In this document: piece by piece, positions 6,005 through 25,318 of the stretch
Layout: each line of letters opens with the position of its first letter
Numbering within the stretch: position 1 is the first letter of the stretch
Origin: a virus
Lineage: Duplodnaviria > Caudoviricetes
Strand: one strand, 5' to 3'
Length of the DNA stretch: 25,446 nucleotides
Virus record (IMG/VR): IMGVR_UViG_3300034062_003341
Location: 1 to 25,446 of that record
Translations under genes and position numbers: made by a program
Notes under the pieces: generated by a model
Databases searched by the model: none
Seen by the model: only the letters and a program-made list of their open reading frames with translations
Told to the model about the DNA's origin: nothing

Positions 6005-6243
6005 CGCACCCTAAGCAATTGGAGTTACCGTTTACTGGGAGACACATCTTGAACGACAAACTCTTAACGCCAAAAGAACTCGCAGAGATGTTGCGGCTGT
6101 CACCCGAAACGGTGAAGGCGGACTGCCGTCGAGCCCCGGATAAACTTCCGCCCCGTTTCAAACGCCCCGGATCAAACCGTCTTTTGTGGCGACTGAGCGA
6201 TGTCGAAGAGTGGATCAATAAATATTCTGGAGATCCTAAATGA
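6001..6243 (+). CDS. AlpA/excisionase-like helix-turn-helix DNA-binding protein
   Basis: KLLTPKELAEMLRLSPETV...LPPRFKRPGSNRLLWRLSDVEEWI; ATGA coupling. Confidence 0.8.
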   Translation: MTHPKQLELPFTGRHILNDKLLTPKELAEMLRLSPETVKADCRRAPDKLPPRFKRPGSNRLLWRLSDVEEWINKYSGDPK

Positions 6244-6875
6244 GTTTTGTATGCCCGCTGCCACCGATCAAAGTCTTTGTGCGCTCTGAGTATTTGCAGG
6301 ACCACCTGCGCGGGCACGGCTCTTACGTTGAAGGGATCTGGTGCAGTGTAAAAAGTATACGCGGCCAGGCTTTTCGTTTTGAGACGTACCTGCCTGAGTA
6401 CGGCGCGTTGTATGACAAGCTGCCGATCAGCGCTTTTGCGTGGAAAGAAGCTATCGAGGACGACCAGCCGCTGGACGTGTTGCAGATCTGGGATTGCCTG
6501 GGGTACCACATAGAGGTGATCGAGAAGCCCCTGCTCGCTGGGCTCAGAGCCAGCGTATTCTGCAAGGACCGGGTCGCCCGAGAGGGTATCTACATGTTCA
6601 CACTTGATGGCGCGCAGCCAGACCCACGGGTGCCCGACTTCACGTTCACGCAAACCCCGGACGAGCACAAAAGCTACAACGTCATCCGGTTGGACAACGG
6701 GCAGTTTGCGCTACAGCCGAACAACCGTTGCCAGTTCTTTGACAACGCCTTTGTGCCGGAGACGTTGAAGACCCCGGACTTCGAGGTCTGCACGCACATT
6801 TACGCTGTCGAACACAAAAGCAAGTGGCGTCTGGGCGGCGATGTTAACTTTCGATACGAGACACCCGATCGTTGA
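6240..6875 (+). CDS. Conserved phage hypothetical protein (211 aa)
   Basis: Globular composition (VRSEYLQDH, GALYDKLPISAF, QIWDC, YMFTLD, EHKSYN, NGQFALQPNNR); ATGA coupling; last gene of the + block. Confidence 0.8.
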   Translation: MSFVCPLPPIKVFVRSEYLQDHLRGHGSYVEGIWCSVKSIRGQAFRFETYLPEYGALYDKLPISAFAWKEAIEDDQPLDVLQIWDCLGYHIEVIEKPLLAGLRASVFCKDRVAREGIYMFTLDGAQPDPRVPDFTFTQTPDEHKSYNVIRLDNGQFALQPNNRCQFFDNAFVPETLKTPDFEVCTHIYAVEHKSKWRLGGDVNFRYETPDR

Positions 6876-9800
6876 ACTGCTTCATCCTATTTGTGATCTG
6901 CTGCTCGATGATTTTCACGGACTCTCGCGAGGCTCCGCGCTCCACCATTTCTCTCTTGCGCTTGCGCAGATCCTGCACTTGGCGATAGACCCTGCTGGCC
7001 TGGGTGGCCAGCCGGGCGTCAGGGTTCTCGCGCAGATACTCCCCAGTGGGCTCCCGGCGCAAACGCCTGCCCTGCAGCTCGTTGTTGTGGACGTTCATCT
7101 TGCGGATGTTATCGTAGAAGGCACTGGCCTCTGCTGCACTGCCAGTGGTCTTGCCATACAGCCTGCCTGCCAACGGGATCTGGTAAGGCGGCAAGTCTTG
7201 CCCGGTCGCCAGCGCACTGATGGTCTGCTCAACCTTCATCGACTCCCGACCCACGCCTCCTGTAACCTGCCCTATCAGGTAATCCAACTGGTCCGGTGTG
7301 GGGCTAACCCCTCCCGGTGCAAAATCCGTCCCCCCTGAAGCCAGGTTCAAATAGTACGAAAGTTGGTTGCTGAACCAACTGGCGGTGTCCCTTCCCCGGA
7401 GGTAGCCGGGAGTTGGGTCCAGGCTGTTCAGATCCTCTCGCGCGATGGGGTTGCCCGTCCAGTCTCGGTTCTCCCACAAAGCCACAAAAGGGTCTGCCAG
7501 CGTGGGGGCAATAGTCTGCCCAGACCACCCTGCGTTGCCGATCGGGTTGAACATGTCGAAGAAGGCCGTCGTTATTTCGATCGCCCTCTCAGGAGTGTTC
7601 TCGAACCCGGACAGTGCCCACTCTGTGGCGATGCGGCTGGTGTTGGGGATCACGTTGAAACCCAAAGGCATCGGGATTGCGATGTAGTCTCCCCCGCCTA
7701 TCGGGATCACGATGTTGCGCTCGCGAATGAACTTCGGGGGCTCGTCTTCGCCGAAGCCAGCGGCAGCCATCATAAGAGCCTGTGCGGACCCCAGGAGCAG
7801 GCCGCCGTACATGATCTTCTTGCCGGCAGGGCCGGTCAGCGTCTCGGCCAGGCGGGCGGTACCTTGCACGGCGGCGTTGAAGAAAGCGAACAGCGCGCCG
7901 GCTTGCGTAGCGCGCTGCCCTTTCTTGTTGAAGTTGACCGTCAGGTTCTTGGCCATAGCCGCCGCACGGTCTTTGCTCATGCCGTTGTCCAGCCCCACCT
8001 TGTAGGCAGATAGCCGCACCGCGTTCTCCATGGCGGTGTTGTAGTCAGACAGCCAGTCGAGGACTGCGCGGCCGGCCTTCTTGGCGGTACCGTTGGTCAG
8101 CGCCTTGAGCTCTTTCTCCAGTGCCTCCTTGCGTTCCGTGCTCTGGCTGAACTGGTCTCTGAAACCCGTCTGCCCGCCTGCACCCTGGAACTCCTCCCAC
8201 AGCTGCGCCCACTGGCCGGTGCCGGCTCCTGTGCGCAGGTCCCTGTAGATCCCGTTTAGAGCCGGCAAAGTGTTGGCCAGCACTTGCGTCTTTTTGTTTG
8301 CGATCGGGGTAGTGGACAGGTTGAGCAAGCCGCCCTGCACGTCACGCGTGAAGTTGATCACGCCGAAGATAGGGTTGTACTGGGTGTTCACACTGGAGAA
8401 CCAGCGGGTCCCTTTAGCCGCTATGCTCATCGCCCGGCCAAGCTGGTCAGCGTCAAGGTTTTTCAGCGACAGGGCCATCCGCTCGGCCTGGGGGTTCTGC
8501 GGGTTCAGAATCAGGTAGCGATCCTTTCCGTTCACCCGTGTGGCGATTACGTTCGCGGAGCTGCGCAGGAAAGGGTTCACCCTCGAAGTCACCAGTCCCG
8601 TTCTGGGGTCAGGGTAGGTCTGCCTCGGTTCTTGCGCGATGTTGTTGGCTTCTATCGGATTGATCCCCATGCCGACCAGCTCAGCAGCCAGGGCCTGCGG
8701 GTTTTTAATTCCGTCAGGGTTAATCGGCAGCCAGAAAGAAGGCGACGGATTCTTCAGAGACAGACCGTATAATGCCTGGCTGACCCTGTTCTTCTCCGCC
8801 CGGACGATCGCCCTTTCGCGTTGCATTACGACGTTGGCCAGGATGTCCACGACCTTGCGGGTAGCTGAGCCAGTCGCACGCTTGGACGCGGACCCGCGCA
8901 CACTGACGCCTTGCCCCGTGCCCGCGCCTTGACCACTGAAATCGAAGTCAATCTCTTCGCGCATCAGGGGAACGTACTTACCGTACGCCCCTTCCCACGC
9001 GTCGATCGTGTCTTGGTTTTCCAGCCCAGCGTCCAGAAGAACGCGACGGGTGCCAGCGGTGATCGCATCGATCTTCCTGGCCAGGCCCTCCAGCGCCGCA
9101 CGGCGCGCTGCAGGCAGGGCCGCCATGTAGGCCTGGGCGTCAGCGGTAGTAATGCCAGAGCCCGCGTCAGGCAGCGCAGGATTGATCTTCGCAATGGCGG
9201 CGTTGCGCTCAGGAGCGTGGCGGTTGTGCAGGTATTGATCGAAGTCCTCGATCGAGACACTGTAGCGCCCCATGGCTTCGATCAGAGACTTGAGTTCAAT
9301 CTCCGCGAAGTCCTTGGTTTTGGTTGATACCTTGCCGTGGTAGAGCGTCTCTTGCAGGTACGGGTCCCACTTGTCGGCGATCTGACCGACCGCCTCGTTG
9401 ATGCTCTCCACCACCCGCTTCGTGTCAACCAGCTTGTCCTGCAGCTTGTAGATGGTGTCATCCAGCCGGCCTTGTTTGACTTGCCAAGCGGTAGCCGGTA
9501 GCGGTTTGCCGAAGATATTCTGCGCTCGGCTGAACATGGGCAACCCGGTGTCCATGACCTGGTCTTTCATTTCAGGCGTGATTGAGAAACCCCTCGCCTT
9601 GATCTTCTTGAAAGAGACCTTGGAACGGTACTCTTCGATGAGCTCATTTCTTTCGTCGGTCTCCAGCCCCCGCCAGTAAGCATCCTGCTCATCGGCGGGA
9701 ATGCCAAGCTCCGCCATGACCTGGTACCCCGTCGCCCAGCCTCTGGGGTCTCCAGGGACGTTGATTTCTACGGTCTCGACCTTTGTTCCGCCTATCTTTG

Positions 9801-12800
9801 GCAGCAGCTTGTTCAACGTCTTCGGGACGATGAAGTCGTAGAACGCTTTCATGCCCTCGCCGCCCACAGAAAGGCCTTCGCCGCTGATCTCCTTGGCTCT
9901 GAAGCGGCCACCCTTGGTACGGGGCTCTGCGTCCAGCAGCTTCTGTGCTACCTCTTTGCCGACTCTCTCGGCGATCTGTTCCGCAGAAGTTACCTTGCCG
10001 CTCACGTCGACAATCTCGTTGCCTTCCAGGTCGAAGACGGTCAAGTAGCCAGTAGAGAAGTCCTCCCCTTGGAGAGAGCTCAAAGGAGACTCAAGCTCTA
10101 TGGAGCTGACCTGCTGGGCCAGATCGTAATGCTTGGCGCTTTGCTCGCCACTGACGAAAGCGACCTTGTCGTAGCCTTGTTCGACGGCTATCGCGATGAC
10201 GCGCTTGAGCGCCAGGTTCAGCCACCCGCCTGTGGTCTGCACGAACGGCGCAGCGGGGACGGGTCTCCCGATAGCGGCGACTCCCACGAAAGACCCTTCC
10301 ATCCGAACGTAATCTTTTGCAACAGCTATCGCTTCTTCTTCGTAGCCTTCAACGGGTTTCACGCTGTAGACGTTTTTGACCAGGATTCCAGACTCGGTGG
10401 TAACTCTCCAGAAAAGATTGCCGTATTCGTCGTAGGCTTCAATTTTGGCGACCATAGGTTGGTCAAGCAGGTCCCCTTTCAGGAAGCCCTTCTCTCGGCC
10501 CTCCTGCCCCCAGTCAGACTGCAGCTCTTCGACGAACAGAACCTCATTGCCTTCGTCGTCGAGGCGGTCCTTGAGGCGGATGTGCGCCAGGACGTTTCCT
10601 TGTTCCCAATGGGTGTGTCGGTACAATGGGGCAGGGGTAGACCCGTCGGTATGCTTAACCGTCCCACCATATTCTCTTGCCAAAGAATCAAACCTGGCTC
10701 TTTCAGCTTGCGTAAGCCCTTCAAACACAACGACTTTTCGGTTTCCTGCTTCGTCTTCTATTCCGCCATAATCAAGGCTTTCAAAACCCTCCGCGCTTAA
10801 AGTGGTTAGGAAGTCGTCTACGGAATCTTCGTCAGAGAATGTGATTTCTCCCGCGTTCCCAGGAACAAAATCCGTGGGTAGCGTCAGCAGGATCTCGCGA
10901 TAGTTTTCTCCGCCGGGCACGGTGTACTTGCCGTACTTTGCGTCGCCGTCTACGCCGCGCGGCGTCCCGCCGATAGGCACCAAAGAAGTTGCAAAAGCCT
11001 CTTCTGGGTCTTCGCCGCTTTCTTCGAGCTCTTGTACCCAGTCGTCGTACGACATCTCATTGCCGTTAAACGGGCTTCGCCAGAAATCATCTGGGTACAC
11101 TTCGCCGGAGTTGCCGAGAACAACCTCACCGACCTGCACGCCATTCTCGGCCAGGAAGGTGGTGACCTGTTCACGCGTGATGGCGCCGGTCTGGGTGTCC
11201 AGCCAGTCTTCCACGCCGGACCACTCGATCTCTTCAGGGTTGATGCCCTTCTGGTTGCGCAGGAAACCTTTCCACTGCTGGGCCTGGCCTTTGGTTGGGC
11301 CTGCTTCAGCGGCGCGAGCCAGCGCGCTGTAGAGCTTGAGCGGGGACTTCTGCGCCTGGCTGAACCGGACATCCGGTATAGCAGGATCAAACGCCCCGGT
11401 GTTGCCGGTGGCGGATTTGACTTGCTCAGGACGGAAGGCGATGTAATGCGTAAGCGCTTTGTTTCCGCTGTCGATACGCTGGGCTATTACCCCGTCGAAC
11501 CCGGCTGCGATTGCATTCTCTTGCGCTGCAGCATCGCTAACAGGATTGCCGTCGTTATCTTTTCCAAAGCGTTTCCAGTAAGCCTCGACCCCTTCGGTAT
11601 AGGGGTTCTGCAAGCTCACATAAACCGGCATCGTGTTAAGAGGTGCTTGCTCAATATCCCGCGATCCCGCACCTACTGCATATTGGAAGGCTTCGCCAGC
11701 ATTATCTGTAGTGTAGATAGCTGGCCCAAACTCACCAATACGGGTCCGCTTAAAAACGTCAAAATCAGAAGCAGTGCCGTGGTACACAACCAGCGGCTCA
11801 CCGTCAGTATCAACCACCTTGCTGTCGCCGAACCAGCGCTTGAACGCAGGCGTGTCGGTCTGCGAGCGGCTGAACTGCGGCCCTCCCATTTTAGTGTAGC
11901 CGGTCTGGTCCAAGAGATAGAGCAGGTTTGTAGACTGCGACACGTCTCCGTCAGGACCGATAGTCTCCACATACACAACAGGGGTGTAAACCGTATCGTC
12001 GAACGTGTATTCAAATTCAGAAGATATAGGGTTCAGGCGGCCTGCAGGCTTGCGCATAGATGGCCCGACACGGGATAAGCTTTTAGCGATAACCCTATTA
12101 CGCCAGCGGCGCCCTCCCGCTCCCTGGGTCAAATACGTGTCTCCTACCTCTAGCCCCAGGAAACCCCCATCGGCGTCAACTTTACGAGTATTCTCGGCAC
12201 GGGTTTTAGCTGACTCTGACATTCGGGACCGGAAATCTTTAGAGAGCTTTCGCAGGTCCCGCATTTCACGGGCCTCGCTGATGTTGGTAACCCCGTCGTC
12301 GTCGCCCTGCTTACGGCTGAACGCCACGTCGCGCGCCACGATACCCCGCGAGTCAACGGCACGCTCTTCATCAAAACGCCGCGCTTCGGTCAAGGGGTAC
12401 AGAAACTTTGTGCTGCCGGGCTTGATGTCAAACGCTGAGCCCTCTGGCACCAGGTGCTCAGGCTCGAGCTCGCGGAACTCTTGCTCGTCGACCTTAATTG
12501 GCTCACCTATTTTTACCGAACCAATAAGACGGGCGGGTCCTTCTCCGGTGCGAATAATTCCAACTGTCTGGCCAACGTACGCACGCAGACTGTTGGTGTT
12601 GCGCGACTCCATGGTCTTCTCGCCATCCACAATCAAATCGGCATAAAGGTTATCGCCGTCGTTGCGAACATTGATCCCGCGTTGCGAGCGGCTAAAACGA
12701 AAATCCTCTTTGTTACCGTACACTGGGTTCTTAGCAAGAACGAGTGGGCCCACCTGGATTGCTTCGTCAGCAGACACGACTGGCTCGCGCGTGGCGCGGT

Positions 12801-15800
12801 CGTAGAAGTACGCGTGCCGGGTAGGGTCCATACCTACCTGCACCCAGTTCTTTGAACCCATAGCAAGCTTGGCAGCAGCAGCAGCTTGCTTAGGAGTGCT
12901 TGGTTTCCAGTCGCCCTTCATTACCGCGATGGTGGCTTTCGGTTTCCCGGAGGCGATGTTGAGCGCTGCGCTTTCAACGACGCCAAAGGTAGGGTTTGTC
13001 ACCGAAGCTACGCTCTCGTAACCGATCGACTTGCCGGCAGCAAAGCCTGGGATCTGATCGTGGACAGAGACGACCCACACGCCGTGGTTGGCGTAGGCCG
13101 GAATGTCCAGGCGCAGACCGACCGGGTCTCCGGCCTTAAGCGTTTTACTGGGCACGCCGATTCGATCAAGTTTGTCAGACGTCAACGCGCGTTGGATGTC
13201 AGCAGGCTTTGCTGGCTCCGGAACCTCGGTGTACGGGGTCACCGGTTTAATTGCATCTACAAGCTCGCTGTACTCAGCGCTCGTAACCGTTCCTTCCTTC
13301 ATCCCCTGAGCGGCTTGCTCGAGACGTGGATCTCTGGCCAGAACGTCGCCTTGCTTACGGCTGAACTTCGGTGTCAAACGCTCCATCTCACGGTTTTGCA
13401 GAGCTACCGCACGGTCGTAATCGTTCAGAACTCTGCCGTCTTTAGAGCTGTACTCGGCGTCCGTCTTGCTTGGGTCGTAAACCATGAAGACAACGTCTGG
13501 CTCGCCGTTGTTAAAAGGTCGGAACGTATCTTTGTCCCATTCGGTAGGGGCGAACTCGTCACTCCATTTGGTGCGAGCTACCGCTCGGAAGCCATGCGGA
13601 GCGTAGAACTCTGGGAGGATTGTGTCGAAAGCGTCCAGCTTGCGGCCGCCGGCAGATACCGCCAGCTCCATGATTGCACGGCCAGCGCCGCCGGTGCTGA
13701 ACACCGAGACGATGTCGCCGTCAAGTTTGATCGCCACGCCAGACTTGCCGTCTTTGGTCAAGAACATGCGCATAGCCTGGTAGTCTTCGGCCGGGTACAC
13801 GTTGACCTCAGCGCCAAACTTCAGGGTCTCTTTGTTCTCAGAAACCGCTTGCCGGAACTTGGTAGCGTTTTCAAGCGTAGATGCCAACTCGAAAAACTCA
13901 GGAGTGGCCAGGTCGTTGGCGCGGAATACCGTGCCGAGGTCTCGACCGGCTTTCCACGTTTGGGTGTAAGTGACACCCAGAGTCTTTAGAAGCCGAACTC
14001 TTCCGCCATTTGCTCCGCCGTCTCCCGCGTAAGCCCCGGATTGTTGCGCATCGCCCGCTCGATTGGCCCGAGATCGGAGGACCGCGCGTTCGCCAATGAA
14101 CTTCCTTCTTCCCTGGCGAGTAAAGCCTCCAGGCGCTGCCTGCTCCCCGGCTCCAACAGCTTGCCCTTGCGTATCGCTGCTTGCAGCTGCAGGTCGTGCT
14201 CTTCCTGATCGCTCATCTTCAACCCTCTTCAGTGCGGCGTTAATACGCCGATCGGTGATTCCTTTTTCACGAGCCACAGACGCCGCTGCGTTGGCGTAGT
14301 CTGGCGCGCTGTCATCAGCGTACCCTTCTACATCCTCATCAGTCTCCAGCCCCTGCGGATCTTCTTTGGCCGTCTCATACAAACGCTTTTCAGCATACCA
14401 TAAAACGGCTTGTAAGTCTGCCATTGTAAGGTCTTTGTACGCATCTGTCTGCCTTAAGTCGTCTAGTATGTCACCAAACACCGCACGAATGTACTTTCTT
14501 TCGTCTGGGTTTTGCGGGGCTTCTTTCTGCCCATCAAGGTATTTTGCCAGGCTGTTGCCGGCTTTACGAAGCTCCTGCCCAACCTCTGTTTTGTTAAGCG
14601 CAGAACGGATCTTTGGGTCCATAGAAGCAATTTGAACCGCGCCAGCCAGTGCGTTTACGTCGTCGGTAATCTCTTCGCCGAGCAGAGCGCTGAGCCGTTT
14701 GGCTTCAGCTGGGTCTGCCAGAACCAAACGCACGGTGTTTTGTAGCCGCGCGCGCGCTTTGGCCGTTTGCTCCGGCATGGCTTTGATCAGAGTACCGGTC
14801 CAGCGGCCCCATGTTCGGATCAGCCAACGGTCCATGGTCAGGCTGTCAAAGTTGCCGTACAGATTGGAGAAGAAACCGTTGCCGATCTTTGGTCCAAGGA
14901 TTGCGGCACCTTTTACAATTACTTCTGAGTGTTCACCGCTTGGCTTAAGCGCTTTGCTGATCCCGCTGATTTCGCTGACAGTGAAGTTGGTCTGCATGAA
15001 ATTACGCAGGCTATCTATGCCCCACTCGTTGCGAAGCGTGTTGAACAGATCCAGTGCGTCATTTATTTTTGAGCCCGCTGTGCCTACTCCGACATTGTTT
15101 GGCATGACCCCGGTGCGCTTGTACTCGCTGTACGCTCTTTCAGCCAGCTGAAAGTTCTTGCCGACCTTGAGGCCGTTGGATGTGACGGCCAGCGCCCAGG
15201 TAAAAGCAAAGCGGGCGTTTTCATCGCGCGCGATCTCAGGGTGTACCAAAGACATCACAGCCAACGCCTGCCGAGTCTTGGTGTCGTACCAGCCAATGGC
15301 GTTTGCGTTTTGTTTGAGCGCGGCGATGGCGTCACGCAAACCTACTTCCAGCAAATATCTTCTAGTTTTTGGAGTGTCTTGCGTGGTGTCGATTCCTTCA
15401 GCCATGCCGGCGTCGAGTACCTGGCGCTGCAGTGCAACTTTAAAATCTCGCCCGCGTTGCCAGTCTTGAGACCTGGCCAGTTTACTGGCAGCGTCAAGAG
15501 AAGACGTGTCAACCAGGGGCTGCGTACGGCTGAACGCCGGAGCGGCACCTTGCGCAGGAGCAGCAGGAGCAGCAGGAGCAGCAGGAGCCTGGCCACTGGC
15601 CTTGCGGTAATTGATCAGCGCGCTCTGGGCGACCATCTTGGCCTTGTTCAGATCGCGGATGTACGTGTCGACCTTGGCGGATTCGGTCTTGCTGCGGTTC
15701 TTGGCGCCGCGCAGAGTGACCAGCAAATTGTCGATGGCAGCCAGCCAGCGCTTAACAAAGCTTTCGAAGCCGGTCGGGTCTGCTTTGGCCAGGTCCTTCC

Positions 15801-18726
15801 AGAATTTCTTGTCCGTGGCGCGATTGCCCAGGAAGTCAGCGACCATCTCGCTGCGCAGTTCAGGATCTTGCAGCAGCTCTTGCATGCGCGTTTCACGGGC
15901 ATCGCCTTCAAGGGCAGACAGTTCATCAACGGCGATAAAGTTTTCAAGGTACGCGCGCTTGCCTTCTTCGGTGATGTCGTCAAAGACGCTGTCGATCTGT
16001 TCGACAAACTCCTGAGCGGGCGTGTCCGTCATCCCGGCTGCGGTCTCGGCCTTGGCAATCTGCTCCACCGTGTGCTTGAACTCATGCAAAGCGGTGCGCT
16101 GCACGCCGGCTTGGTTGCCACTCACGTTCACGTAAGCGACTTTGCCAATTGCTACGCCGTTGATGGCGCCTGGGCGCGGGTCAGAGAAAGCAACAACCCG
16201 ACCTCCCCACTGGCTGCCGATCAGATCTGTAATCTCAGCTACGCTGGCTTCGAGCTCGGGAGAAGCGGCGTTAAAGGCGACTGGGCTATTGGTGCCTTGG
16301 GAAGCTGCCCAGGTGTCCATAGCCCGCTGAGCAGTTGCTCGCGCTGCGTCTCCGGCAGACTGTCCAGCCACCGGTTGAGCGGCCACGTTAGACACCGGCG
16401 CTGGGATACTAATGAAGTTTTCATCTGTAACTGTCTCCTGTACTTGCGGGGCCGGCGGTATCCGTCGAGCGCGCAGTTCTACTTCTGCACCACGTCGAGT
16501 GACAGCCGGCACAGTGTTGTTTGAAATAAGAGTTTCGAGATCCGTTTCCGAATACAACTCGGTGGCCTTGCCGAGAAGCTTGGTTGGGCGAGGAACCTCG
16601 ACGCGAGGCGCCGCTGTTTGTGCGGCTGGGGTGCGCGCCTGTACCGGGCCGACGGTGCGGCCATAGACTTCGGCGGCTCTTTGCAGGGCGGCGGTCTGCA
16701 CAGGGCCAGGTTGGGCACCGCGTGCCATGGCCAGGTTGGCATTAAAATCTTCACGGTCTTGCACTTCCATGCCACGGGTGTCGGCCGACATCAGGGCGTC
16801 GAGGCTCGGAGCGGCTGTGCGGGTGCGCTCTTGCGGCAAATCCTGCGCGCGTGCGATAGCCTCCTGGGGCGTGACGCTTGGCAGCGGCTGCTGCACCGGG
16901 CCGACTGTGCGGCCGTAGGTCTCAGCTGCGCGCTGCAGCGCCTGTTCGCGCTGTACGGGCAGGTTTGCTGTACGGGCGGCGGTAAGGTCGTCCAGGAACT
17001 CCTGCCGCTCTGGCGCGGGCATCGTGGAGATGTCGGCCTGCGTCAAGGTCTCGAGTGTAAGGGTCGGCGCCATGGCTTGAGCCAGAAGGCCCTGGCCCTG
17101 CGGCGCTGCAGTGCTGACTCCAGGAACGGCGGTGCTGACTCCAGGAACGGTGGTCACAGGGGCGACAGCACTGGCCACGGGGGTGGTGGTGCCAATGCCG
17201 GCTTCGCGCTCCAGCGCTTCGATGTCTGTGTCGACCATGTCAGAAGCGGCTTGGACCGCATCAGCGGCAGAGGTGGCTTCGTTAAGGCGCTGCTCTGCTG
17301 CGACTTTGATCTTGAGATTGTATGCCGTGCCGAGCGCTTCAGGGTTACGGACGTTGTTTACCAGGAACTCCAGCTCAGCCTTTTCGTTGTCGCTCAGAAA
17401 CTCTGCCGGACGGCCTGGAGAAATAACGGTTTGCCCAGTCGTAGGGTCCACGATTTCAGTGGCAGCTGTGCCTTTGCCTTTTGCGGTAAGCTCTTCCAAA
17501 CGTGTGCGCGCGAAGGCAGTGGCCTGTTCTGGCGACACTTCCGCTGGCGCTGGCGGGGGGTTACCAAACTTCAGAACTTCGTCTTCAGCAGGGCGCTGTT
17601 GGTCTCGCGCGGATCGCAAGCCTGCGCTAACAAATTTCTTACCCAGCGCGGGCACTTCAACGATTGCACCGCCTGCTTCACCAAGCATTTCAAGCGCAAC
17701 GGCTTCCAGGTCAGCTTCTCCGTAAGCAGCAATCTGGCCGGCGGTCTCGCCTACGCCAGCGCCGGCCACGTCGACCCCGTAACCCTTGGCGCCGGCAACC
17801 AGCTTTTCAGAAAACGGCAAAGCGTCGAGGTTGCGTTGGACCAGGGCGTTGACGTCTGCGCCTGTCTCAAGTGCTTCTTTGGCCGCGGCTGCCACTGTTG
17901 CGCGCATAGGCGCTGATGAGATCCGGCCTCCGAGGATGCTGGTTGCGGCGTCGACCGCTGCCACGGTGGTGCCTTTTATCCTCGCCTGGCTGGTAGCGGT
18001 ATCGCGGAAGGTCTTGTCTTGCAAAAGAGCGTTGATGTTTTCTTCGGTAGGTTGGAGTCCTCGAGCAGCCAGTTCGCTGCTTACGATCCCCATGAATTCG
18101 GCTCCAATCTCCATGGGAGCAGAAGCCGCAAAAGCGCCCATTACGCCGCCCACGGCGGTGCCAATACCTGGCGTTACAACGGTGCCAGCAGCCGCGCCGC
18201 CCATCCCGCCCAAAAGAGTCGGGACCATGTTGGCAGCTTGCTCGGCCGTAAAGTAGGCCATCCCGCGCGGGTTCGTGACGAGCTGTTTGCCCATTTCGAC
18301 GGCGGTTCCGCCAATTGCGCGAAGGCCCTGCGACGAGTACCAGTTCTCCGCTTGCGCCATCATCTCGGCTTCGTCTTTGAAAGCCCCAGCTACTTCTTTC
18401 AACTCTTCAGGTTGATACCGTTCAGTTGTCAGGTTTTTAGCAATGAGCCCGGCAGTGCCCTCTACGTCGCCAGCGATTACCTGCGGGCCAACTTGATAAG
18501 AGCTGACAGCCTGTTCAGCGCCTTGCTTGAACAGCGTGCCGACGTTTTTAAAGAAACCTGGCTCTTCTTCCGGCTGTGCCGGCGTTGGCGCCATGTTGAG
18601 AGCGGCGTCAAAATCTGCGCGATCAATCTTCCCCGCGTAGTATTTGGAATACAAAGAATCAGACAACTCTTGGTCGGAGAGGTTGCTGTACTGGGGATAC
18701 TTCGCGCGGAAATCGTTAAGACGCAT
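6844..18726 (-). CDS. Giant (3960 aa) polyvalent protein, probably virion-ejected: zincin-like, HhH-like, GNAT-like, ASCH, ART-like and LPD38-like domains
   Basis: Uninterrupted 11.9-kb ORF with an AGGAG SD. Motifs: HEFKH (aa 881-885); GPKIG..TMDRW; GAGRAIMELAV..KLDAFD..FYAPHGF; GEKTMESR; VYHGT..GPAIYTT..GFDGVI; VEELQSDW; NLTVNFNKKG..FFNAAVQG..IPMPLGF..ENRDWTGNPI. Last gene of the internal-virion cluster. Confidence 0.9.
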   Translation of the reverse strand: MRLNDFRAKYPQYSNLSDQELSDSLYSKYYAGKIDRADFDAALNMAPTPAQPEEEPGFFKNVGTLFKQGAEQAVSSYQVGPQVIAGDVEGTAGLIAKNLTTERYQPEELKEVAGAFKDEAEMMAQAENWYSSQGLRAIGGTAVEMGKQLVTNPRGMAYFTAEQAANMVPTLLGGMGGAAAGTVVTPGIGTAVGGVMGAFAASAPMEIGAEFMGIVSSELAARGLQPTEENINALLQDKTFRDTATSQARIKGTTVAAVDAATSILGGRISSAPMRATVAAAAKEALETGADVNALVQRNLDALPFSEKLVAGAKGYGVDVAGAGVGETAGQIAAYGEADLEAVALEMLGEAGGAIVEVPALGKKFVSAGLRSARDQQRPAEDEVLKFGNPPPAPAEVSPEQATAFARTRLEELTAKGKGTAATEIVDPTTGQTVISPGRPAEFLSDNEKAELEFLVNNVRNPEALGTAYNLKIKVAAEQRLNEATSAADAVQAASDMVDTDIEALEREAGIGTTTPVASAVAPVTTVPGVSTAVPGVSTAAPQGQGLLAQAMAPTLTLETLTQADISTMPAPERQEFLDDLTAARTANLPVQREQALQRAAETYGRTVGPVQQPLPSVTPQEAIARAQDLPQERTRTAAPSLDALMSADTRGMEVQDREDFNANLAMARGAQPGPVQTAALQRAAEVYGRTVGPVQARTPAAQTAAPRVEVPRPTKLLGKATELYSETDLETLISNNTVPAVTRRGAEVELRARRIPPAPQVQETVTDENFISIPAPVSNVAAQPVAGQSAGDAARATAQRAMDTWAASQGTNSPVAFNAASPELEASVAEITDLIGSQWGGRVVAFSDPRPGAINGVAIGKVAYVNVSGNQAGVQRTALHEFKHTVEQIAKAETAAGMTDTPAQEFVEQIDSVFDDITEEGKRAYLENFIAVDELSALEGDARETRMQELLQDPELRSEMVADFLGNRATDKKFWKDLAKADPTGFESFVKRWLAAIDNLLVTLRGAKNRSKTESAKVDTYIRDLNKAKMVAQSALINYRKASGQAPAAPAAPAAPAQGAAPAFSRTQPLVDTSSLDAASKLARSQDWQRGRDFKVALQRQVLDAGMAEGIDTTQDTPKTRRYLLEVGLRDAIAALKQNANAIGWYDTKTRQALAVMSLVHPEIARDENARFAFTWALAVTSNGLKVGKNFQLAERAYSEYKRTGVMPNNVGVGTAGSKINDALDLFNTLRNEWGIDSLRNFMQTNFTVSEISGISKALKPSGEHSEVIVKGAAILGPKIGNGFFSNLYGNFDSLTMDRWLIRTWGRWTGTLIKAMPEQTAKARARLQNTVRLVLADPAEAKRLSALLGEEITDDVNALAGAVQIASMDPKIRSALNKTEVGQELRKAGNSLAKYLDGQKEAPQNPDERKYIRAVFGDILDDLRQTDAYKDLTMADLQAVLWYAEKRLYETAKEDPQGLETDEDVEGYADDSAPDYANAAASVAREKGITDRRINAALKRVEDERSGRARPAAASSDTQGQAVGAGEQAAPGGFTRQGRRKFIGERAVLRSRANRAGDAQQSGAYAGDGGANGGRVRLLKTLGVTYTQTWKAGRDLGTVFRANDLATPEFFELASTLENATKFRQAVSENKETLKFGAEVNVYPAEDYQAMRMFLTKDGKSGVAIKLDGDIVSVFSTGGAGRAIMELAVSAGGRKLDAFDTILPEFYAPHGFRAVARTKWSDEFAPTEWDKDTFRPFNNGEPDVVFMVYDPSKTDAEYSSKDGRVLNDYDRAVALQNREMERLTPKFSRKQGDVLARDPRLEQAAQGMKEGTVTSAEYSELVDAIKPVTPYTEVPEPAKPADIQRALTSDKLDRIGVPSKTLKAGDPVGLRLDIPAYANHGVWVVSVHDQIPGFAAGKSIGYESVASVTNPTFGVVESAALNIASGKPKATIAVMKGDWKPSTPKQAAAAAKLAMGSKNWVQVGMDPTRHAYFYDRATREPVVSADEAIQVGPLVLAKNPVYGNKEDFRFSRSQRGINVRNDGDNLYADLIVDGEKTMESRNTNSLRAYVGQTVGIIRTGEGPARLIGSVKIGEPIKVDEQEFRELEPEHLVPEGSAFDIKPGSTKFLYPLTEARRFDEERAVDSRGIVARDVAFSRKQGDDDGVTNISEAREMRDLRKLSKDFRSRMSESAKTRAENTRKVDADGGFLGLEVGDTYLTQGAGGRRWRNRVIAKSLSRVGPSMRKPAGRLNPISSEFEYTFDDTVYTPVVYVETIGPDGDVSQSTNLLYLLDQTGYTKMGGPQFSRSQTDTPAFKRWFGDSKVVDTDGEPLVVYHGTASDFDVFKRTRIGEFGPAIYTTDNAGEAFQYAVGAGSRDIEQAPLNTMPVYVSLQNPYTEGVEAYWKRFGKDNDGNPVSDAAAQENAIAAGFDGVIAQRIDSGNKALTHYIAFRPEQVKSATGNTGAFDPAIPDVRFSQAQKSPLKLYSALARAAEAGPTKGQAQQWKGFLRNQKGINPEEIEWSGVEDWLDTQTGAITREQVTTFLAENGVQVGEVVLGNSGEVYPDDFWRSPFNGNEMSYDDWVQELEESGEDPEEAFATSLVPIGGTPRGVDGDAKYGKYTVPGGENYREILLTLPTDFVPGNAGEITFSDEDSVDDFLTTLSAEGFESLDYGGIEDEAGNRKVVVFEGLTQAERARFDSLAREYGGTVKHTDGSTPAPLYRHTHWEQGNVLAHIRLKDRLDDEGNEVLFVEELQSDWGQEGREKGFLKGDLLDQPMVAKIEAYDEYGNLFWRVTTESGILVKNVYSVKPVEGYEEEAIAVAKDYVRMEGSFVGVAAIGRPVPAAPFVQTTGGWLNLALKRVIAIAVEQGYDKVAFVSGEQSAKHYDLAQQVSSIELESPLSSLQGEDFSTGYLTVFDLEGNEIVDVSGKVTSAEQIAERVGKEVAQKLLDAEPRTKGGRFRAKEISGEGLSVGGEGMKAFYDFIVPKTLNKLLPKIGGTKVETVEINVPGDPRGWATGYQVMAELGIPADEQDAYWRGLETDERNELIEEYRSKVSFKKIKARGFSITPEMKDQVMDTGLPMFSRAQNIFGKPLPATAWQVKQGRLDDTIYKLQDKLVDTKRVVESINEAVGQIADKWDPYLQETLYHGKVSTKTKDFAEIELKSLIEAMGRYSVSIEDFDQYLHNRHAPERNAAIAKINPALPDAGSGITTADAQAYMAALPAARRAALEGLARKIDAITAGTRRVLLDAGLENQDTIDAWEGAYGKYVPLMREEIDFDFSGQGAGTGQGVSVRGSASKRATGSATRKVVDILANVVMQRERAIVRAEKNRVSQALYGLSLKNPSPSFWLPINPDGIKNPQALAAELVGMGINPIEANNIAQEPRQTYPDPRTGLVTSRVNPFLRSSANVIATRVNGKDRYLILNPQNPQAERMALSLKNLDADQLGRAMSIAAKGTRWFSSVNTQYNPIFGVINFTRDVQGGLLNLSTTPIANKKTQVLANTLPALNGIYRDLRTGAGTGQWAQLWEEFQGAGGQTGFRDQFSQSTERKEALEKELKALTNGTAKKAGRAVLDWLSDYNTAMENAVRLSAYKVGLDNGMSKDRAAAMAKNLTVNFNKKGQRATQAGALFAFFNAAVQGTARLAETLTGPAGKKIMYGGLLLGSAQALMMAAAGFGEDEPPKFIRERNIVIPIGGGDYIAIPMPLGFNVIPNTSRIATEWALSGFENTPERAIEITTAFFDMFNPIGNAGWSGQTIAPTLADPFVALWENRDWTGNPIAREDLNSLDPTPGYLRGRDTASWFSNQLSYYLNLASGGTDFAPGGVSPTPDQLDYLIGQVTGGVGRESMKVEQTISALATGQDLPPYQIPLAGRLYGKTTGSAAEASAFYDNIRKMNVHNNELQGRRLRREPTGEYLRENPDARLATQASRVYRQVQDLRKRKREMVERGASRESVKIIEQQITNRMKQFNDRVSRIES
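9520..15534 (-). repeat. Seven dispersed copies of TTYAGCCRNNNGCAR encoding F-S-(R/Q)-x-Q at module boundaries
   Basis: Copies at 15520-15534 (FSRTQ), 13351-13365 (FSRKQ), 12682-12696 (FSRSQ), 12307-12321 (FSRKQ), 11860-11874 (FSRSQ), 11350-11364 (FSQAQ) and 9520-9534 (FSRAQ). Confidence 0.9.
13986..14216 (-). CDS. Candidate nested (+1 frame) 76-aa gene inside the giant ORF
   Basis: AAGAGGG SD-like site 6 nt before ATG 14216. The product MSDQEEHDLQLQAAIRKGK...IERAMRNNPGLTRETAEQMAEEFGF looks helical, while the main frame here is an R/G/A-rich low-complexity linker. Confidence 0.6.
   Translation of the reverse strand: MSDQEEHDLQLQAAIRKGKLLEPGSRQRLEALLAREEGSSLANARSSDLGPIERAMRNNPGLTRETAEQMAEEFGF
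15554..15589. repeat. 9-bp tandem repeat x4 (GCAGGAGCA) encoding an Ala-Pro-Ala linker
   Basis: Three perfect units plus one with a single mismatch; encodes APAAPAAPAAPA just before the first FSR motif. Confidence 0.9.
16635..17070 (-). repeat. Internal duplicated ~60-aa unit (84-aa period) in the giant protein
   Basis: ALQRAAETYGRTVGPVQ and ALQRAAEVYGRTVGPVQ lie 252 bp apart; the upstream halves also align loosely. Confidence 0.85.
17111..17152. repeat. 21-bp tandem duplication encoding VPGVSTA x2
   Basis: gtgctgactccaggaacggcg followed by gtgctgactccaggaacggtg. Confidence 0.85.
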
Positions 18727-24425: not shown

Positions 24426-24665
24426 TCACTCCGCAGCTTTATTGATCGTTGCCGTCGATGTTGCCTTGTCTATTACTAACACCCCGTGACAACTGATGTT
24501 CCAGTCCTCTCCGGTTCTCTCGCTGGAGGATGGCACGTTCAAAACAAAGTGCTTGAACAGGTACTCTTTCTCAGCCTTGTCGCCTTCAAAGACACGCCAA
24601 ACGTGTTCCATTGTGCCTCGACCAGCCTGACCACGCGATTTGTTGTAGCGTATAAGATACTTCAA
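24426..24665 (-). CDS. Hypothetical protein (79 aa)
   Basis: TTG start overlapping the upstream TGA, with a GAGG SD; beta-rich sequence IRYNKSRG..HVWRVFE..EYLFKH..WNISC. Confidence 0.7.
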   Translation of the reverse strand: MKYLIRYNKSRGQAGRGTMEHVWRVFEGDKAEKEYLFKHFVLNVPSSSERTGEDWNISCHGVLVIDKATSTATINKAAE

Positions 24666-25318
24666 ATGACCTCTGCCGCACTGGTGCTACACGCTTGCGG
24701 CGCGTACTGCACACTCAAATTGAAATGCACAAACTTGATCGGCTTGTCTGAACCATGCCGCCCAAACGAATGCGGGAGCCAAGCGTTACTAATCAGCACC
24801 ATACCCGGCTCAGGCAAGAAGTTAATGATGTTGCTTGCCGGTGTTGCGTTGCTCATGTTTGCTTCCGGCAGGTTGATCTGCACCTTGCCGCCTCGCGGAT
24901 CGTGGAACATGGCTCTGGAACATCCTTCCGGTGTCTCAAGGAAGTAGAACCCCACCAACTGATGCCCGCCACCGTGAACGTGCTGCTCCATCAACGAATG
25001 CTTGTGATGCTCCTGCGTCCACACTGCGTCTACTACCACGTTGAAGCTGTCCATTGCGTAGCCTTGGCTCTGCAAGATGCTCCAGCCGTTCTGACCAATA
25101 TACTGCACAAAGTCCTGCACTCTTGGATCATTGGCGAAGTTGTCAGTGTTGTGCATCGGATAAAGCTCATGCACGTCATGTGTGAGCTTGCCTAACATTT
25201 CCTCAGAGACTTCGTTAACAGCTTTAAGAAACTCAGGCTTCTTGCTTGCGTAAACAGCAGACGGGAAGTAGTAGTACGCTTCAAACTCGGGCTGCTCTTG
25301 TTTCTTCTTTTTAGACAT
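24662..25318 (-). CDS. 2OG-Fe(II) oxygenase, TIGR02466-like
   Basis: YFPSAVY, W..., HVH, VGFYFL, FHDPR, PEPGMVLISNAWLPH and terminal HFN: double-stranded beta-helix pattern with HxH...H ligands. Confidence 0.8.
   Translation of the reverse strand: MSKKKKQEQPEFEAYYYFPSAVYASKKPEFLKAVNEVSEEMLGKLTHDVHELYPMHNTDNFANDPRVQDFVQYIGQNGWSILQSQGYAMDSFNVVVDAVWTQEHHKHSLMEQHVHGGGHQLVGFYFLETPEGCSRAMFHDPRGGKVQINLPEANMSNATPASNIINFLPEPGMVLISNAWLPHSFGRHGSDKPIKFVHFNLSVQYAPQACSTSAAEVI

Follow-up and report, generated by a model that had tools for sequence, protein, structure and literature searches.

The Rz/Rz1 pair of phage lambda is a case in which one gene is fully embedded in the +1 frame of another and the products bind; these spanins are partners in membrane fusion. 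Small ORFs that look like immunity genes usually come after MuF toxin genes, as described in the sections of Jamet et al. 2017 (PMC5576092) covered here, and in the Rpn system an internal start within the toxin gene gives rise to the antitoxin (Koonin commentary, PMC10400984). For the toxin AtaT, the covered part of a review describes AtaR's C-terminal region as disturbing the alignment of acetyl-CoA (PMC7758455). GNATs are listed among the predicted effectors that polyvalent proteins deliver at invasion (Iyer et al. 2017, PMC5512222, covered passages), and Rac of the phiKMV-like phages is a predicted GNAT acting on the host, with cleavage of RNA polymerase alpha (PMC7552054, covered passages). 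The main text of PMC5512222 uses the words "linker" and "overlapping" 0 times, and internal immunity genes are absent from its passages covered here; the main text of PMC5576092 uses "GNAT" and "acetyltransferase" 0 times. A full-text literature search, over incomplete holdings and with supplements outside its scope, brought up no paper about out-of-frame immunity genes in polyvalent or MuF proteins. Here we describe a candidate for such a gene.

The window, that is the whole stretch of DNA analysed, comprises 25,446 nucleotides of a Caudoviricetes virus (IMG/VR record IMGVR_UViG_3300034062_003341). According to the gene annotation of the phage record, the replication genes lie on the plus strand and the lysis and late-type genes on the minus strand; all features described below are on the minus strand. 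The host gene (6844..18726) encodes a 3960-aa protein with profile matches to ART-PolyVal (11389..11811, E 1.9e-26), to LPD38 (7171..7746, E 1.7e-39) and, weakly, to ASCH, and it also contains a HExxH motif and a GNAT domain. Very large, multidomain and equipped from the ART/LPD/MPTase repertoire, it is by these profile matches a phage polyvalent protein as Iyer et al. use the term. Family knowledge and the position of the gene among late-type genes make it likely that the protein is packaged into the virion and delivered by injection. Seven FS[RQ]xQ motifs were found in the 3960 residues (at 1065, 1788, 2011, 2136, 2285, 2455 and 3065). An FSRTQ motif (15520..15534) opens and an FSRKQ motif (13351..13365) closes a cassette of upstream domain, linker and GNAT, and the scan of the host protein gave no such motif between the two domains, in line with the first-pass annotation, which had pointed to this HhH-like/GNAT-like junction as one lacking FSRxQ. 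A second +1 candidate in the window (16424..16239), located before the HExxH domain, has a protein-likeness score of -42.9 and scores as off-frame. Separately, a second nested family was observed ahead of an ART-like domain in several lineages of the examined loci, including Limnohabitans phage DC33.

The GNAT-fold acetyltransferase domain (13378..13986), the predicted effector, was assigned from its structure model, Foldseek and its relatives. Folded alone, the model reaches a pLDDT of 93.5, the Foldseek matches listed are GNAT acyltransferases (best E 7.8e-4, probability 1.00, TM about 0.4) and the relatives are annotated as acetyltransferase; a Pfam search of the domain gave no Pfam GNAT match. 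Model and Foldseek hence bear out the GNAT-like character that had been proposed from the letters. The beta4-alpha3 loop VFSTGGAGR (13678..13704), which lies in the interface predicted below, is presumably the acetyl-CoA pyrophosphate loop. The usual GNAT motif A loop has the form Q/R-x-x-G-x-G, and because STGGAGR departs from it, catalysis by the domain is not certain. The upstream domain (14362..15495) is modelled as all-helical with a pLDDT of 86.7, and its HhH-glycosylase-like label is a putative one, from motif resemblance. It gave no significant Pfam or PDB sequence match; the best Pfam match is a weak one to DUF7178 (E 0.023, 2/27 members).

In the linker between these domains lies the nested gene (P0002, 13986..14216), whose 76-aa product is a candidate immunity protein on the basis of its homologs, selection and pairing with the GNAT. 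It is read in +1 relative to the host ORF, over host residues of about 1504-1581, where the host frame is an R/G/A-rich stretch. The Shine-Dalgarno-like AAGAGGG (14223..14229) stands 6 nt before the ATG at 14216, and the 76 codons end at TAA 13986; all of these coordinates, claimed at first pass, were reproduced. Since 13 of the 126 +1-frame stop-to-stop segments in the host gene are 76 codons or longer, and +1 remains open in 62% of cases when the linker is recoded synonymously, the length of the ORF is at chance level and was rejected as evidence for a gene; it proves nothing. Composition is more telling. Among the 15 +1-frame ATG ORFs of 30-140 aa in the host gene, a positive protein-likeness score is reached by the nested ORF alone (+31.8 vs -20 to -110 for the other 14), which agrees with the early impression of a protein-like product next to a main frame that reads like an off-frame translation. 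Two further candidates were dropped as support. An internal promoter came down to one sigma-70-like site (14451..14423) against 0.6 expected by chance. The nested ORF is spanned, fully or in part, by RNA contigs from four metatranscriptomes; as the runs were found via small shares of the window, the overlap is conserved in DNA and contigs cannot rank expression, we do not count them as support, and they carry no information on translation.

Searches with the nested protein gave 31 homologs among 34 candidates; the tblastn matches L020, L066 and L067 were false, being located within other long ORFs, and were discarded. Its profile is matched by 236 clusters at 50% identity (E up to 0.001), and none of the sequence searches against Pfam, PHROGs, ESM Atlas and PDB assigns it to a family. 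Stops in the +1 frame or a missing ATG in homologous linkers had been put forward as signs against a gene; instead, start, stop and the open +1 frame are retained in the homologs. An SD-like word precedes the start in 22/37 representatives, and the stop position is fixed across all 37, where all three stop codons are employed. Nor does conservation follow the main frame, the other warning sign named at the outset: amino-acid identity is higher in the nested frame in 566/666 pairs of the 37 representatives. Host third positions differ by 0.248 upstream and 0.251 in the GNAT vs 0.116 in the overlap (16 non-overlapping pairs of nested loci). An overlap-aware selection test with 15 of these pairs, the most divergent one being left out, gave a pNN/pSN of 0.45 for the nested frame (95% CI 0.33-0.60), so that the proposed comparison of the two frames reveals purifying selection in the nested one. 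The host frame in the overlap gave 0.55 (0.41-0.77) in the same test. Judged by this ratio, the main frame in the linker is more than neutral filler, and purifying selection acts on it too. Constraint on the nested frame falls on both ends of the overlap (0.44, 0.41) and that on the host frame chiefly on the middle segment (pNN/pNS 0.28), a pattern by which the two frames divide labour. With its start, stop and open frame kept and its own frame under purifying selection, the nested ORF behaves as a real, conserved second gene, and the region is dual coding. The cultured Limnohabitans phage DC33 carries the gene as well; its annotation lists the large CDS only.

Which neighbour does the small protein belong to? 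The first-pass annotation had suggested that it serves a flanking enzyme domain, and positional pairing together with the predicted complex supports this and narrows the partner to the GNAT. A search with the GNAT alone as query, which avoids ascertainment, gave 160 loci (the best 80 of 447 plus the best 80 of 356), and 79 were kept after those with <420 nt upstream, a weak GNAT score or >85% identity were left out. Within these best-80 lists, a +1 ATG ORF ends near the GNAT start in 78/79 non-redundant loci, and the C-terminal aromatic motif ends the ORF in 73/79. A control position, 300 nt into the GNAT, had a +1 ORF in 19/79 loci and the motif in 0/79. One of the 78 ORFs, that of L156, is spurious, and the motif-bearing ORF of this locus lies farther upstream. 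Among loci found by the upstream domain (best 80 of the longer list), a nested match occurs in 39/39 with GNAT vs 0/5 without. Five loci whose upstream domain seems by eye to be unrelated (L042, L059, L137, L153, L158) also keep the nested ORF before the GNAT. Absence of the upstream domain from many loci was considered and rejected; most hold distant subfamilies of it, and the truly independent contexts number about 6/86.

In Microbacterium and Methanobrevibacter viruses, this GNAT family also occurs in fusion with minor capsid proteins of the MuF type. The MuF-GNAT protein of the unrelated Microbacterium phage Caron has a nested ORF of 47 aa with GAAAGG in front and ILSGW at its end, and the archaeal virus vir075 has no nested ORF and a small overlapping downstream gene instead. 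A small gene is hence tightly linked to the effector domain across carriers, as in toxin-immunity systems. It does not sit directly downstream of a C-terminal toxin tip, but upstream of the internal GNAT domain and overlapping into it; the downstream layout was seen in vir075 only. By position, the nested gene is strictly paired with the GNAT domain. In phages UNO-SLW1 and Lika a solo GNAT homolog is the first annotated gene at a genome end, and in Alpheus it is the third; this location fits action at entry. The solo genes of UNO-SLW1 and Lika have no annotated gene upstream, which counts against an immunity function of the small protein.

The C-terminal module of the nested protein (residues 50-76, 13989..14069, PIERAM..PGLTRE.AE.MA..FGF) travels with the GNAT and is predicted to bind it. 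When the GNAT (203 aa) was co-folded with nested residues 40-76, each chain with a 39-row alignment, three runs gave ipSAE values of 0.81, 0.81 and 0.82 vs 0.02 for the best of three control pairs, which included no unrelated GNAT. The co-folding suggested at first pass thus lends predictive support to binding. The ipSAE mark is reached by 116/157 solved complexes and 2/215 mismatched pairs, a rough guide only, as the alignments here are custom-made. At least 96% of contacts are shared between the runs, and the partner has a pLDDT of at least 79. GNAT toxin-antitoxin complexes have been solved; a PDB sequence search found no solved structure similar in sequence to either chain. In the predicted complex, nested residues 50-76 pack on GNAT residues 55-60, 95-103, 121-130, 157-159 and 178-181, and the contact surface is made up of the beta4-alpha3 loop and the beta5-alpha4 segment. 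In GNAT enzymes these two elements form the acetyl-CoA cleft. The C-terminal module is therefore predicted to bind the acetyl-CoA cleft, and on this model it is likely that the small protein blocks the GNAT domain. In the small protein, conservation is higher at interface columns than elsewhere (0.67 vs 0.50 and 0.43). In the GNAT it is equal inside and outside the interface (0.63 vs 0.63), which counts against the immunity reading. A binding prediction cannot tell an inhibitor from a chaperone or an activator, and these are weighed below.

The N-terminal module (nested residues 1-36, 14109..14216) behaves differently: to judge from its distribution, it travels with the upstream domain and not with the GNAT. 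Where the upstream domain is not followed by a GNAT, 21/23 non-redundant loci of the best-80 list have a +1 ATG ORF shortly after the domain, mostly at 124-145 nt. An SD word, often near-perfect, precedes 17 of these 21 ORFs and an N-terminal AQ(Q/E/D)EQ-type motif is present in 14, and the C-terminal motif was found at the end of 0/16 examined in full, five longer ORFs being left out. In the motif region of these loci, pNN/pSN is 0.20 vs 1.29 for the host frame, from 9 pairs with small counts and loci picked by the motif. Among the 86 GNAT loci, the N-terminal module follows the upstream subfamily (type A 26/30, type C 10/12), and the DQEFAQAMKLKL module goes with upstream type B in each of its 22 loci (10 by pattern, 12 by eye). 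The partial rho is 0.48 for the N-terminal module with the upstream domain and 0.29 for the C-terminal module with the GNAT, with pairs that are not independent. Because physical linkage alone gives such co-variation between a module and its neighbour, a function of the N-terminal module on the upstream domain is putative.

The search for stand-alone homologs, recommended at first pass, furnished 29 distinct copies outside a long host frame, after exclusion of four truncated nested loci. The former host frame contains stops in 19/29, and the small frame has a pN/pS of 0.34 (9 pairs), by which the stand-alone copies remain under purifying selection. In 9/29, a short remnant of the GNAT N-terminus follows the stop (by eye), and we conclude from these remnants that those nine were cut out of nested loci. 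The idea of a once-independent gene engulfed when its neighbours fused consequently finds no support in the stand-alone copies. Their neighbours include integrase, AlpA, PriCT-2, AAA_25 or D5 primases and IS genes, and further an ADP-ribosylglycohydrolase, an HD domain and Schlafen helicases. One copy in a Limnohabitans MAG (L076) lies between integrase plus primase and gltX, and one in a Burkholderiaceae genome (L075) adjoins gltX, with an AAA_25 gene. By this gene content, several stand-alone copies are in satellite-like islands. PADLOC gave strong candidate-defence neighbours in 3/9 stand-alone loci scanned and in 0/4 MAG loci, and a defence-island setting is for this reason only partly supported.

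Taken together, we consider it probable, on the model of the complex and the pairing, that the small protein is the immunity protein of the adjacent GNAT, which its C-terminal helical module is predicted to bind. The giant polyvalent protein would be made late and packaged, and translation from the internal SD would at once yield the small protein from the same mRNA, so that the GNAT stays silent in the producing cell. Injected without the small protein, the GNAT domain would then act in the next host. The N-terminal module may do the same for the upstream domain, which would make the protein two-headed. Hosts and satellite-like elements would have captured the gene to neutralise the injected domain, and the captured copies may weaken the injected enzyme or act against helper phages. 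An internal domain of a polyprotein would have no free downstream slot for an immunity gene, and the low-constraint linker may give room for one that moves together with its domain.

A folding or packaging chaperone, which holds the GNAT and possibly the upstream domain fit for encapsidation or ejection, would fit the shared mRNA, the fixed position and the predicted binding equally well, and the cassette could be clamped by the two modules, one towards each neighbour. It would leave unexplained why stand-alone copies are under purifying selection where the GNAT is gone, at least for a chaperone acting in cis, and the GNAT folds confidently alone (pLDDT 93.5) and occurs as solo genes; we regard this explanation as unlikely. 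About as unlikely is a co-injected activator, substrate adaptor or effector, which would bind the GNAT or host GNAT-fold/acyl-CoA enzymes and be kept by islands for interference between elements. Predicted binding fits either sign of effect, and orphans in satellite-like elements could act on helper phages; however, the predicted site covers the cofactor cleft, much as the C-terminal region of AtaR does on AtaT in the covered part of the review (PMC7758455), and solo GNATs do without the small protein.

Two readings deny the small protein an ordinary translation of its own. Programmed frameshifting into +1, which would give a shorter polyprotein with a 76-aa tail and without the GNAT and downstream domains, is suggested by the database protein P0137, which joins the upstream domain to the nested sequence, and by a similar join in L112; yet these joins are at different places and look like indels, the dedicated ATG stands at a fixed place with an often near-perfect SD (17/21 of the ORFs after GNAT-less upstream domains) and stand-alone copies keep the ATG, which makes frameshifting very improbable. 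That the ORF is an untranslated shadow of main-frame conservation is scarcely credible, even with open +1 stretches of this length being common (13/126) and the host frame under selection too (0.55), since nested-frame selection is independent of the host frame, identity is higher in the nested frame, specific binding is predicted and the orphan copies contradict it outright, the gene outliving a destroyed host frame in 19/29.

Beyond the single pair, a wider proposal is conceivable, although we would not bet on it: that polyvalent linkers hold a further, hidden layer of +1 immunity genes, which can be two-headed, that domain shuffling through the linker rebuilds the matching inhibitor, and that bacteria and satellites steal these genes as defences. 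If it holds, the immunity reading would answer how a phage builds a virion protein full of host-modifying enzymes without harming its own late infection, a question that becomes testable in the cultured pair of Limnohabitans phage DC33 and its host or in an E. coli toxicity-rescue assay. It would further provide a rule by which functions could be given to linker genes that stay hidden from annotation, point to those polyvalent domains that are dangerous enough to need an inhibitor, and suggest that bacteria have taken over a class of very small defence genes from phages.

How does the locus compare with the known systems? Like Rz/Rz1, it has a +1-embedded gene whose product binds, here by prediction, the product of the host gene; the partners here are an enzyme and a candidate inhibitor instead of spanins. 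With the polyvalent proteins in the covered passages of PMC5512222, the host protein shares ART-PolyVal, LPD38, the HExxH motif and the GNAT domain. The GNAT Rac is a free protein made during infection, likened here by description only (PMC7552054, covered passages), whereas our GNAT is a domain of a giant protein. With Rpn the locus shares a small gene for a (here candidate) antagonist inside the effector gene and with its own internal start; RpnS, however, is in frame, a copy of the toxin C-terminus and part of a bacterial defence gene (PMC10400984), whereas the nested gene has unrelated sequence, lies in +1 within a phage gene and provides no in-frame internal start for a C-terminal toxin fragment. 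AtaRT, TacAT and KacAT, in the covered part of PMC7758455, resemble it in a small gene upstream of the GNAT and in a C-terminal region that binds near the acetyl-CoA site (here predicted). They have a free GNAT toxin, whereas the GNAT here is a domain of a 3960-aa protein; P0002 gave no match to Pfam and PHROGs, including none to RHH/DUF1778, so that the two-gene operon of RHH/DUF1778 antitoxin and free GNAT which defines these type II systems is not what we see. The MuF polymorphic toxins, as far as PMC5576092 is covered here, share the virion-associated carrier, the variable effector domain and the small ORF. Their immunity ORF follows the toxin gene, a layout to which the small downstream gene of vir075 conforms, whereas the nested gene lies inside the gene, out of frame and upstream of an internal domain. 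Although it has the defining layout of neither, the nested gene is, by these analogies, best read as working like a polymorphic toxin-immunity pair or a GNAT antitoxin.

The N-module of the nested gene (residues 1-36) also occurs joined to a different tail. At five homologous loci (L278, L285, L286, L301 and L308), nested ORFs of 114-129 aa combine this module with another conserved tail, VLENLMSTLPPE, and they are located downstream of the upstream all-helical domain, with the GNAT domain being absent. The tail is possibly a module that serves another downstream domain.

A second group of nested +1 ORFs, 37-62 aa long and for the most part preceded by SD words, was found in several lineages, where these ORFs overlap the start of a domain with HYS...RIYFY that we take to be ART-like (L157:12117-12302, L146:1764-1937, L032:6003-6176, L073:4150-4320, L140:1716-1889 and L059:5181-5291, each in the coordinates of its locus). 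In the cultured Limnohabitans phage DC33 (L157), the ORF of this group lies immediately downstream of GNAT. A candidate third nested +1 family, MTPAK.MEARA..., precedes other domains (L079:2227-2334, L146:6270-6359, L068:5725). The window itself holds a 61-aa +1 ORF with AGGAG ahead of the HExxH domain (16424..16239, minus strand); it clusters with ORFs of three other loci (L012, L023 and L154; W.ESL...REQL), and its composition scores as off-frame.

The domain junctions of the giant protein carry seven FS[RQ]xQ motifs (window positions 15534, 13365, 12696, 12321, 11874, 11364 and 9534, minus strand), which may be processing sites of the HExxH peptidase domain or else marks of recombination. 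DC33 is devoid of FS[RQ]xQ motifs. Its 39 kb record (PQ492659.1) is assigned to Inoviridae, a label that is likely wrong, because the phage codes for a 3125-aa polyvalent protein together with a peptidase lysin. Among the remaining window genes are a member of PHROG 3704, annotated as ferredoxin (6240..6875, plus strand), and a 2OG-Fe(II) oxygenase gene (24662..25318, minus strand).

Orphan copies of the nested gene, standing outside a long host frame, have among their neighbours genes for an ADP-ribosylglycohydrolase and for an HD-domain protein (L038:6256-7086, L035:8271-9107); these two enzymes could undo the action of other polyvalent effectors.

Solo members of the GNAT family also occur (L160:752-1231, L161:831-1208, L162:1484-1951); T7-like Pseudomonas phages carry them at the genome end, and the family is matched by more than 100 Streptomyces phage records. 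The solo GNAT is a candidate early host-takeover or anti-defence enzyme. In Microbacterium phage Caron (L158, OQ190481.1), the gene for the minor capsid protein contains an unannotated nested ORF of 47 aa, which is situated where the MuF-type part gives way to the GNAT part (about 2710-2860 of the locus), and the same GNAT fusion is present in phages UtzChips and Barnstormer. In Methanobrevibacter virus vir075, an acidic 89-aa gene overlaps the 3' end of the MuF-GNAT gene (L159:3429-3698), and its product is a candidate for an unrelated immunity protein of an archaeal virus.
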